Of a stretch of 19,222 nucleotides of DNA, positions 1,595 to 9,976 are shown in pieces. Within the stretch, counting starts at the first letter, position 1, and every line of letters begins with the position of its first letter. The notes beneath the pieces were generated by a model that was not told the origin of the DNA, made no database searches, and saw only the letters and a list, made by a program, of their open reading frames with translations. Source of the stretch: a virus (lineage: Duplodnaviria > Heunggongvirae > Uroviricota > Caudoviricetes); IMG/VR virus record IMGVR_UViG_2526164693_000012; one strand, written 5' to 3'. Both the position numbers and the translations under genes were made by a program.

Positions 1595-4500
1595 TTAATC
1601 CACTCCCACTTTTTTGTTGTACTCGCGGTTAAACCGATCCACGGCAATTTTCATATCCCGCTCTACCGATTTCACCATCGCCGACTGTTGCGCCAGACTG
1701 AGAGTACTGTCGGCGTAAATGGCATCACGCTGTTTACGCAAATCCTTCAGTCTCTTCCGGGTATCCTGCATAAGCCCGTTCATCGACAATTTTCCGTTGT
1801 TCTCGTCAATGAACGCCGTTCTTTCTGCACCGGTCAGACTCTTCAGCTCTGCGTGATACTGCGCAATCTCTGTCATCCGGTCGTACATCTTCTGCTGGTC
1901 TGCATACGGCATCACCTCCCCCGAAATTTTCCCCAGGAAGGGCACCTGCTGTTCCGGTATATCAATACCATTCAGCGATTTCACCGCCGCATCCGTGGTT
2001 TTGGAAATGAAGCGCCCTGTCCCTCCGGAGATATAGTCAATCCAGAATTTCAGCGATTCCGGTGTGATATCCACCGCGCCGGGACGGTACTGGCTGCCAC
2101 CTGAGAACGCATTCAGCCAGGATGCAAACGCCTTGTACGCTTCTGGCGTTGAACGTCTTCCCAGCTGGCTGTCAGGTTTTGGTGTACCAAACGGCATGTT
2201 CTCCTGGTAAATCTGCGCCCCCATGAAGTTTTCATTCATGGCAAGGTTCGCAAACGGACGCAGAATGGTCGGCGCTGCATTTTTCAGCAATGCCCCGGAC
2301 AGTGTTTCCGACGTCTCACTGCCAATCGGGCTGAATGCACCAAGCACACCACCAACAACATTACCGGCAGCACGGGACGCCGTCAGGTCACCCGCCGCCA
2401 CACCTTCAGCAGTATGCCCGAGCAGGAAGAAAACGTTGTACCCGTAAGGCAGAGGAATACTCCAGTACTCTCCGGCCTTGCCCCCGAACACCGATTTCAT
2501 AATGACGAGGTTACGCTCTTTCACATGAGACGGCACCTTGTCATACCAGTTAACCCCGTCATCATCCTCACCCGCCACGCTGCGGTTAAGCGAGCCAAGC
2601 AGATAACCTGCTCCCACAGCGGCAAGCGCGATTTTCTGCGGAACATTCAGATTCTTCCAGCGAAGGCGCTCCAGTAAAGGTCCCTCACCATTAAGATGTC
2701 CGAGCGTTCTCACCAGATTTGCCGTTCCCTGAATGCTGGCGTTGGCGAACATGTACAGCGAATTCATCAGCGCCCCCTGCTCACCACGACGGTTAAAGTT
2801 CACCGTCATGTTTTTGGCAAGAGACGCCGCCTGCTGGCGTGACAAACCGGCATCACGGGCGTGCTTATAGGCAGAAAGACGCAGAGCGTTTTCAACCGCA
2901 CCGTTGGCATCCTCGACAAGGTTAAGGAACGAATTCCATGCACCGATACTCTGGCCTTTCCATCCCCCCTTCGCCAGTGAGACAAGGCGATCCATTTCCT
3001 TCTGCTGGCCTTCAAGGTCACCCATGTTAAACCAGCCGGTTTTCCCTCCGTCCTCAACAAACTCTTTCCACACCTTCTGCCACTGTGCACCTTTTCCCGT
3101 GAGGGTTTTACCACGCAGACTGGCGTATACGGCTGACATGGCAGAACGGCTGTCTTTCACCACAGCCAGGGCGGATAAGTTATCCAGCCCTTTCAGTTTA
3201 CCGTCGCTCCTTCCCTGCTCCGCCTTCAGGTTCATCACCGCCGTCTGCACGTCACGGATGAAGTTACTGACCAGGAATTCCGGGTTATACGACGTGTTCA
3301 CCGTTGCCAGGAAGCGGTTAACTTTCCCCAGCGTACGAACAAAGGCATTGCTGGTTTCCGGTCCCATACTCTTCATCGCACGCATCAGGCGCGGATCATG
3401 GAGTTTGATGTAGTACGTTTTGCCGTTCTTTTTGGTGGTGAAGTACCGGTCTGCCATCATTGCCATCGGTACAGGGCGTTCGACAACTTCGCGAATGGTT
3501 TCACCAGTTTCCTGGTCCTTGCGCTCTGCAATCGTCCGCATGGTATCCGGTCTGTCATCGGTGAATACCTGCCAGTAATCCTTGTCGGGATTATCCTGCA
3601 CCAGTTTCAGGAAGGCGTTACCCACTTCGTTTTTGCGATGGCGGATCAGCGATTCGCTCAGGTCCTGTATCGCCTGAGTGGACGGAGACTGTGCCCGGGA
3701 TGCACGCCCCATGGCCTGCCTGCTTTCACGTCCGCCGATGGTGAAGCCCTTACCTGTACGGGGCAGTGACACCACACCGTCAACATCCTGACCTTTCAGG
3801 GGAACGTAGTAACGGTAGGCGTTCTGCCAGGCATCCACCACACCGTTCTCTTCAAGTCCGGCCTCACGGATAAGCTCACGGCGACGGGCCAGCATATCGT
3901 CAATAATCCCTGCCAGACGGTCATACTGTGCCTGTTTGCCACTGTTACGTACACGCTGCATGATTTCCGCCGCTTCCGCGTTGGTCATCCCCGAACCGCC
4001 GTCCGGCATTTTCGGGTTGATTTTCGCGATATGCGCGTTACGTTCCGGCGCGTGACGGGCGTAGAGGTACTCATCCAGATCGGCCTGCGCAATTTTGTAG
4101 TCCGCCAGTAATTTAGCCAGTGGCTGAACGTAGCGCTCCTTCATCACGTTCAGGTCGTTTTCCGCCTTCCCGTGGAAGAGTTCTTCCGCCATATAAGCGT
4201 TGTTACTGTCGTCCACTTTGCCGCCAGTTTTACGGATATTCTCCTGAACAGCTTTCAGCACCTGGAATTTATCCTGCATCTGGCGCACAAAACGCGATGC
4301 AATTGTCTCTTCCGGTGTCAGACTGCTGGTACGGGAGTAATACGGCCCCTTGCGAATATCTTCAGGATAGAGTATTTTATCCGCAGAGCCGCGATAAGAA
4401 TGTTCCCCTTTGGGCAATTGGAGCCCTCTGTGCAGAAGGTTATCGCGGCTTAATTTTTCTCTCCGGTACAACGTTAACCCGGTCATTTCCATACTCTTCA

Positions 4501-9976: not shown

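Follow-up and report, generated by a model that had tools for sequence, protein, structure and literature searches.

We analysed a 19,222-nucleotide (nt) stretch of DNA from a tailed phage (Caudoviricetes; IMG/VR record IMGVR_UViG_2526164693_000012, hereafter the window), in which a single giant gene occupies positions 1595..9976 of the minus strand and encodes a protein of 2,793 amino acids (aa) plus the stop codon. The gene corresponds to ORF80/ECs1242 of the Shiga toxin (Stx) phage Sp5, which is orf71 of VT2-Sakai (NP_050570.1), and its homologue in phage phi24B is gp47. With a probability of roughly 0.7, we consider its product to be the large ejection protein of the DNA ejectosome in short-tailed Stx phages, having the build of a polyvalent protein and carrying effector cargo; on the comparisons given below, it is best read as the counterpart of T7 gp16 and N4 gp50. 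The gene, its essentiality, its domains and its presence in virions had already been published. What is added here is computational and modestly interesting, namely a conserved chassis, the homology of the N-terminus to an N4 protein, a cysteine-free gene block and corrected domain labels. The idea of an earlier note on this DNA, made from the sequence alone, that the gene encodes a large polyvalent protein of the packaged and injected type, finds support here; as a discovery, the feature is not new.

The experimental evidence comes from two Stx phages. In Sp5, deletion of ORF80 abolished both plaques and lysogens on K-12 and could be complemented in trans, and the mutant still made DNase-protected genomes at the wild-type level and normal-looking heads; deletion of the neighboring ORF79 gave the same phenotype (Mondal et al. 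2016, PMC5155283). The gene is, as shown by those authors, essential for infection and not for head formation or DNA packaging. In phi24B, gp47, which is 97.2% identical to the giant protein, was found in purified virions by mass spectrometry but has no density in the cryo-electron microscopy (cryo-EM) map, in which the portal, two adaptor rings, the nozzle, the fibres and the needle were modelled (bioRxiv April 2026, 10.64898/2026.04.10.717836). Virion proteomics, named in the earlier note as a way to check the idea, was thus already available for a nearly identical protein, and of its description of the gene as conserved but still uncharacterised, only the first part stands, given the deletion mutant of 2016 and the proteomics of 2026.

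The domain layout of the giant protein is given here in the 2,793-aa numbering, with all coding positions on the minus strand. The chain starts with an N-terminal module (N-module; aa 1-467, 8576..9976), followed by a low-complexity linker (aa 468-1039, 6860..8575) that has no Pfam family match and is under purifying selection, with a ratio of nonsynonymous to synonymous substitution rates (dN/dS) of 0.12-0.25. Composition windows are Ala/Gly-rich over residues 101-500 and Glu/Arg/Gln/Pro-rich over residues 501-900, in agreement with the Gly/Ala-rich N-terminal region and Pro/Glu/Arg-rich linker of the earlier note. Next come an LPD5 domain (aa 1040-1204, 6365..6859; Pfam PF18799, E-value 6.5e-45, and a local hidden Markov model, HMM), which forms the first part of a mobile cassette, a zincin-like domain together with LPD1 (zincin-1; aa 1205-1451, 5624..6364), a second zincin-like domain (zincin-2; aa 1473-1640, 5057..5560) and a MuF-C domain (aa 1687-1839, 4460..4918). 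The protein ends in a C-terminal module (C-module; aa 1881-2788, 1613..4336) that is mostly alpha-helical with one beta subdomain and that contains the Pfam domain LPD38 (aa 2476-2681, 1934..2551). The Pfam matches proper span aa 1051-1200 (LPD5), 1361-1440 (LPD1), 1750-1839 (MuF_C) and 2476-2681 (LPD38) and are all far above the cut-offs, and the NCBIfam model CLCA_X matches aa 1182-1437 with an E-value of 2e-43, which is below its family cut-off. The hallmarks of polyvalent proteins are therefore found in one chain, as LPD5, LPD1, MuF_C and LPD38 occur with two conserved HExxH domains, and the gene lies among the virion late genes at the end of the structural operon. These domains, together with the presence of phi24B gp47 in virions and its absence from the map, are what supports the packaged and injected type. 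LPD5, LPD1, LPD38 and MuF-C had been noted in gp47 in the phi24B preprint (10.64898/2026.04.10.717836).

The two HExxH motifs are HEWFH (aa 1284-1288, nt 6113..6127) and HEIIHH (aa 1551-1556, nt 5309..5326). The earlier note had placed the first one exactly and the second one at 5297..5326, which is corrected here, and its distance of about 270 residues compares with 267 measured. Both motifs are kept in homologues down to ~30% identity and, in the AlphaFold model, lie in predicted helices after small beta sheets. In zincin-1, H1284, E1285, W1286, H1288, D1291, E1375 and E1382 are conserved in at least 95% of 29 homologues of ~30-50% identity, and the candidate third zinc-ligand helix is EMAARAFE (aa 1375-1382). 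Since E1375 and E1382 are conserved along with the HEWFH residues, LPD1 is, as judged from the alignment, the C-terminal half of a gluzincin-like domain. In zincin-2, the motif HE..(x)H is found in all relatives, and across an alignment of 14 diverse giant proteins H-E-x3-H, one Gly and one downstream Glu are invariant. Both domains are thus predicted gluzincin-type metallopeptidases (HExxH plus a downstream Glu), and the hits behind their zincin fold are CLCA_X, MtfA, Pro-Pro endopeptidase and lethal-factor type protein-cutting enzymes; MtfA- and anthrax lethal factor-like as well as CLCA-type zincin peptidases are among the closest known systems.

An AlphaFold model of aa 1040-1850, in which the LPD5 region is confident, has a pLDDT of 81.6 and a pTM of 0.51. 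This indicates four predicted well-folded units without fixed mutual positions and, given the high pLDDT at a pTM of only 0.51, would fit independent beads on a chain. Foldseek comparison of this central model with the PDB gave nothing significant (best E-value 0.58), the PDB sequence search with the whole giant protein gave chance matches only, and the PDB search with the C-module profile gave only coiled-coil noise.

The N-module links the giant protein to phage N4. The N-module family HMM matched N4 gp50 colinearly over aa 154-444 with 32-36 bits, as opposed to 1.9 bits for the best of 500 shuffles, and hhalign aligned the two over 136 columns with 95% probability (E-value 3.7e-8). In the reciprocal phmmer search, the N4 gp50 N-terminal domain alone found 10 of the 108 N-module proteins described below, and the N4 polymerase and C-terminal domains found none of the 108, which argues against N4-like proteins having seeded the HMM. 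With the PHROG vRNAP profile, the match is confined to the N-terminal part (E-value 0.006). Judging by these profile comparisons, the core of the N-module (aa ~125-430) and the membrane-binding N-terminal domain of the injected RNA polymerase of N4, the vRNAP gp50, are homologous. This N4 domain binds lipids, has predicted membrane helices at aa 224-278 and inserts into nanodiscs; it is followed by a 100-aa low-complexity linker, the polymerase, an HExxH domain and a 110 kDa helical domain without structural relatives. For gp50, 4±1 packed copies were reported, with no visible density in virion maps, and its ejection follows that of gp52 and gp51, in the manner of beads on a string (Bellis et al. 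2026, PMC13434306). Our N-module match spans the segment reported to hold the membrane helices, and the N-module itself has weak hydrophobic segments at aa 181-199 and aa 407-425.

Like the Stx protein, N4 gp50 has this same order of parts, is encoded by the last gene of the structural operon and has no cysteine. Unlike the Stx protein, it has an RNA polymerase domain, its linker is about six times shorter, and its C1 and C2 parts have no detectable similarity to the Stx zincin and C-terminal parts: HMMs of the Stx central region and C-module had no match in N4 gp50-53, and neither did the C-module in an hhalign comparison with the gp50 C-terminal domain. T7 gp16 is likewise the largest of a set of adjacently encoded ejection proteins, essential for infection and not for head assembly, and free of cysteine. 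It differs in having an N-terminal SLT transglycosylase, in its length, which is half that of the Stx protein with its extra cargo, and in that no sequence similarity was found between the two; the Ralstonia and Burkholderia relatives of the Stx protein do have an SLT domain.

Comparison of the relatives reveals a conserved chassis, made of the N-module, zincin-2 and the ~900-aa C-module, around swappable cargo (the LPD5-zincin-1-LPD1 cassette and the MuF-C domain, which is RelE/colicin-D-like). A word-indexed search with the N-terminus reached E. coli and Salmonella only, so that an exhaustive profile search was needed: the profile of the N-terminal 470 aa, run against 1.84 billion representatives, retrieved 108 proteins, including 57 giants of at least 1,900 aa that carry the module N-terminally. 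According to local HMMs, ~30 of the 57 also end in the C-module and nearly all have zincin-2, usually upstream of the C-module, but only ~23 have the LPD5/zincin-1/LPD1 cassette. Since zincin-2 is nearly universal and the cassette is found in a minority, the second motif is assigned to the conserved backbone and the first one to a mobile cassette. Elsewhere, the cassette forms a stand-alone protein of 470-650 aa or is fused to RadC, ART or Toprim. In 14 of these giants, the cargo assigned by Pfam varies among ParB, methylases, SNF2/Sno helicases, LPD39 and MuF-C, and the domains found between chassis parts overall are methylases, helicases, ParB, ART, LPD3 and LPD39. Used alone, the last ~950 aa find homologues with ART, methyltransferases, LPD3 or InPase fused upstream.

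The same chassis turns up in phages of Vibrio, in the Ralstonia GP4-like and Burkholderia Bcep22-like groups, and in dozens of giant proteins from metagenomes. By tblastn, the C-module is present in 355 phage records, the carriers being Stx phages, ~100 marine Vibrio phages, Ralstonia GP4-like and Burkholderia Bcep22-like phages, the Methanosarcina virus MetMV and Bacillus megaterium podophages. From N- to C-terminus, the Stx protein reads N-module, linker, LPD5, zincin-1, zincin-2, MuF-C and C-module; the giant protein of Vibrio D189 reads N-module, zincin-2 and C-module; that of Ralstonia YL1 reads SLT, N-module, LPD3, zincin-2 and C-module; and BcepMigl gp16 reads SLT, N-module, methylase, helicase, PBECR1, zincin-2 and C-module. 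The Bcep22-like (BcepMigl gp16, JC1 gp69) and Ralstonia GP4-like giants therefore share with the Stx protein the three chassis parts in the same order and the same operon position, while the BcepMigl type differs by its N-terminal SLT and its methylase, helicase and PBECR1 cargo, as opposed to LPD5/zincin-1/LPD1 and MuF-C. In three of four related phages (Vibrio D189, Ralstonia YL1, Burkholderia BcepMigl), as in N4, the giant gene closes the structural operon, and in these four the preceding gene encodes a protein of roughly 450-650 aa; in the fourth related phage, MetMV, further same-strand genes follow. JC1 gp69 and the product of its adjoining upstream gene, gp68, were both virion-associated by mass spectrometry.

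Polyvalent proteins with a C-terminal LPD38, a domain restricted to phages, were described before and are likewise multidomain, linked to virion genes and composed of zincin, MuF-C and LPD domains (Iyer, Burroughs, Anand, de Souza, Aravind 2017). That study defined the separate domains, and neither the N-module nor the ~900-aa C-module as a unit, and included no experiments on the Stx protein. As a side observation, MetMV, whose assigned host is an archaeon, encodes at 2584..11592 a 3,002-aa protein with zincin-2 and a full C-module (28% identity, HMM E-value 1e-129). These two parts are clear and the N-module match is marginal (E-value 2e-4); apart from MetMV, the chassis was seen in phages of bacteria.

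A further feature shared with known ejection proteins is the absence of cysteine. The giant protein has none in its 2,793 residues, and the products of 421, 83, 148 and 218 aa encoded directly upstream have none either, so that the five-gene block 1595..12688 holds 0 cysteines in 3,663 residues where ~42 would be expected from the frequency in neighboring genes (P ~7e-19). Most other genes in the window have 2-8 cysteines, the only other one with zero being the 422-aa needle gene (15354..16622). Cysteine is also absent from 53 of the 57 related giants, from N4 gp50, gp51 and gp52 and from T7 gp15 and gp16, and is present in most other structural proteins of N4 and T7. Zero cysteine fits proteins that cross a narrow channel unfolded and refold beyond it. 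Given that the five-gene block is cysteine-free like the T7 and N4 ejection proteins, it is likely the ejection set. Separately, podovirus genomes might be screened for ejected proteins simply by the lack of cysteine.

The partner gene of 421 aa (10046..11311, minus strand), which is Sp5 ORF79/ECs1241 and essential, is a candidate for a further ejection protein. In the Vibrio phage, a homologue immediately precedes the giant gene, and the equivalent in JC1 is the virion-associated gp68. The three small genes of 83, 148 and 218 aa (11322..12688, minus strand) are candidates for small ejection or membrane proteins; the 218-aa product matches a PHROG family of virion structural proteins (E-value 1e-8), the 83-aa product (11322..11573) has a glycine zipper, and the glycine-zipper Pfam matches of the small proteins are weak and below cut-off. 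As PDB searches with the 421- and 218-aa proteins found nothing, roles in an outer-membrane pore or a periplasmic tunnel are guesses. The 83-aa protein is annotated as 'bacteriocin', and a detected 'homolog of a bacteriocin' was discarded as a contaminant in the phi24B proteomics. Its gene lies within the cysteine-free block, flanked by two candidate ejection genes, so that the protein may be a genuine component of the virion or of a membrane.

Based on these observations, the following course of events can be proposed. The giant protein would be made late, as the product of the final gene of the structural operon, and a few copies would be packed inside the capsid. Upon release of the tail needle, it would be threaded through the tail as loosely connected domains, and the cysteine-free proteins encoded upstream would travel along with it. 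The N-module may then insert in the inner membrane, completing a trans-envelope DNA conduit, and the remaining chain, with the LPD5/zincin-1/LPD1 cassette, zincin-2 and the RelE/colicin-D-like MuF-C, would enter the cytoplasm, where the zincins may process the chain into functional parts or cleave targets in the host. In this scheme, the location in the capsid, the insertion in the membrane, the sequence of ejection steps and all catalytic activities are inferred. Short-tailed Stx phages are vehicles by which Shiga toxin genes spread in E. coli; if the giant protein forms the inner conduit and delivers enzymes, it would decide which hosts a toxin phage can enter and lysogenise. The chassis also ties it to the N4 vRNAP, a model system that has structures and assays.

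More tentatively, and with odds clearly below even, the Stx giant protein and the N4 vRNAP might be two versions of one ancient injection chassis, whose cargo is released by the chassis zincin and then acts on host targets. Such a chassis would consist of a membrane-inserting N-module, a processing zincin and a capsid-targeting C-module, any cargo could be spliced into it, and the Stx cargo would be a protease/RNase set. If true, the cargo would act in the first minutes of infection and could affect defence evasion or the outcome of lysis versus lysogeny, and the absent cysteine would be a general, searchable signature of proteins that thread through a tail.

Several points weigh against an ejection protein. 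Packing of gp47 in the phi24B capsid was deduced from its absence in the cryo-EM map, the hydrophobic peaks of the N-module are weak (Kyte-Doolittle maximum 1.38), and the enzymatic roles of the zincins and MuF-C rest on sequence and fold prediction. The Stx protein also has no peptidoglycan-cutting domain, unlike T7 gp16 and the SLT-bearing Ralstonia and Burkholderia relatives; in Pfam, no SLT or lysozyme family was matched. Finally, and as the main point against this reading, ORF80-deletion particles of Sp5, which have full heads, were not labelled by an antibody against the tail fibre (ORF67), and ORF80 was called a tail-assembly gene (PMC5155283). Since a role in ejection only does not predict loss of the fibre, this labelling result is at odds with our proposal, and it is the basis of the 2016 alternative, in which the giant protein is a tail-assembly factor or a structural component of the tail, possibly energy-dependent through the AAA+ domain that was reported as a COG1483 match (PMC5155283). 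The labelling data were, however, not shown in that paper, and the phi24B tail has been fully modelled with no density for the giant protein; a tail protein of 305 kDa would be hard to miss, and the model leaves no room for it. The ATPase label was rejected: the Walker A pattern [AG]xxxxGK[ST] is absent from the whole protein, as the earlier note had seen in stating that there is no P-loop, and no ATPase family was found in Pfam or NCBIfam. We therefore consider a role in tail assembly improbable.

Another possibility is that the protein is purely an anti-defence or host-takeover effector like P1 DarB, injected but without a part in the conduit. Polyvalent proteins have been argued to counter restriction and other defences (Iyer 2017), the Burkholderia relatives have methylase and helicase domains and are annotated as DarB-like, and the PHROG 'DarB-like' profile does match the Stx protein. 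This match is restricted to the LPD38 region, however, and the Stx protein itself has no polymerase, methylase or helicase family in Pfam. Moreover, the parts conserved across genera are the N-module, the C-module and zincin-2, and not the effector-like cargo. P1 Dar mutants are not known to lose plating efficiency except on restricting hosts. Deletion of the Stx gene abolishes plaques and lysogeny completely on K-12, so that a pure anti-defence role is unlikely.

We give similarly little weight to the proposal of the phi24B preprint, in which gp47 is a capsid-packed ejection protein whose "MuF-C metallopeptidase" might cut peptidoglycan (10.64898/2026.04.10.717836), if this is taken as the main enzymatic job, allowing the conduit to cross the wall. 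A wall-cutting activity would be expected somewhere, as relatives and T7 gp16 have an N-terminal SLT domain. The peptidase was, however, placed in MuF-C, for which the fold hits are the BECR-fold RNase toxins CdiA-CT, BrnT, RelE, colicin D and HigB, in line with its definition as a phage BECR (predicted RNase) domain (Iyer et al. 2017); the label is thus a mislabel, and the peptidase-like domains lie elsewhere in the chain. Those zincins match protein-cutting enzymes, as listed above; neither the family hits nor the fold hits include an M15 or M23 wall peptidase, and the relatives use SLT instead. The occurrence of the zincin-1 cassette alone or fused to RadC, ART or Toprim, and of polyvalent-protein zincins in conjugative elements too (Iyer 2017), also argues against wall cutting. 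Finally, a side tail fibre or a tape-measure-like protein, suggested only by the size and the position downstream of lom, can be dismissed, as the earlier note had done, since searches of Pfam, PHROGs and NCBIfam gave no such family, other proteins form the lateral fibre and the needle in the phi24B structure, and the virion is that of a podovirus, which has no tape measure.

The giant gene closes the structural operon, with the nozzle, needle and virion genes upstream of it, and the "side-tail-fibre slot" of the earlier note was misleading: in this podovirus, the position is the end-of-operon slot of ejection proteins, as in N4, GP4-like and Bcep22-like phages. Nor does the gene directly follow lom (13613..14347), as had been stated, because five genes lie in between (12782..13183, 12032..12688, 11583..12029, 11322..11573 and 10046..11311).

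The reading frame was defined as follows. In the list of open reading frames (ORFs), an unbroken minus-strand ORF runs over 1595..10015, giving 2,806 aa when counted from the first ATG. The ATG at 9976, which yields 2,793 aa, is preceded at 5 nt by a GGAG, no Shine-Dalgarno sequence or ribosome-binding site precedes the ATG at 10015, and the alignment to the PHROG_616 profile (2,793 positions) begins at residue 14 of the 2,806-aa ORF. For these reasons, residues are numbered from 9976, which confirms the unbroken ~8.4 kb ORF of 2,793 codons described in the earlier note, where no strand was given, and agrees with the 2,793 aa used in the literature. The RefSeq/GenBank start is 13 codons upstream (9977..10015, minus strand; 2,806 aa), and this extension holds the only two cysteines of the ORF.

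The 8.4 kb are 100% identical to phage VT2-Sakai/Sp5 (NC_000902.1) and to many other Stx phages, and the gene is present at 90% identity or more in 186 Stx-type phage records; the earlier note had rightly pointed to similar proteins in Stx prophages. Apart from the annotated RefSeq start, the locus is the same as in Sp5, phi24B and 933W, the 933W homologue being 99.8% identical over the N-terminal 470 aa. Among 5,426 complete E. coli genomes, 427 carry the gene, under the NCBI name "LPD38/LPD5 domain-containing protein". It accounts for ~14% of the phage's total genome. Four relatives, 90-97% identical in aa sequence, have an intact ORF (2,784-2,794 aa), and dN/dS is ~0.2 overall and in each region with differences, the low-complexity linker included; the gene is therefore translated and under selection. 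The MuF-C segment is a hot spot of mosaic divergence: in phage PhiR5_2 it is only 36% identical, with flanks of the same gene at 94-96%, which points to allele replacement by recombination inside the giant gene.

Short antisense or overlapping 'hypothetical proteins' are annotated inside the giant gene in the phi24B record (10192..13769), AP005153.1 and AP004402.1 (e.g., vb_24B_50c-52c, and 19 features in AP005153). Given that the long frame is under purifying selection, these are almost certainly spurious. Between the needle gene and the ejection block, G+C content is low (~13200..16000; 0.41-0.46 versus 0.52-0.58 in the giant gene). This stretch, which includes lom, two small 'moron'-type genes for membrane or outer-membrane proteins (14438..15055 and 15061..15339) and a gap of ~430 nt between lom and the next gene, resembles an inserted island. 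Past the late operon, at 700..1044 (plus strand) and downstream, lie oppositely oriented accessory genes, which are annotated in VT2-Sakai as a YgiW/YdeI OB-fold stress protein and a MokW/Gef-like host-killing peptide, and terminator-like hairpins are found at 1060..1082 and 1114..1134.

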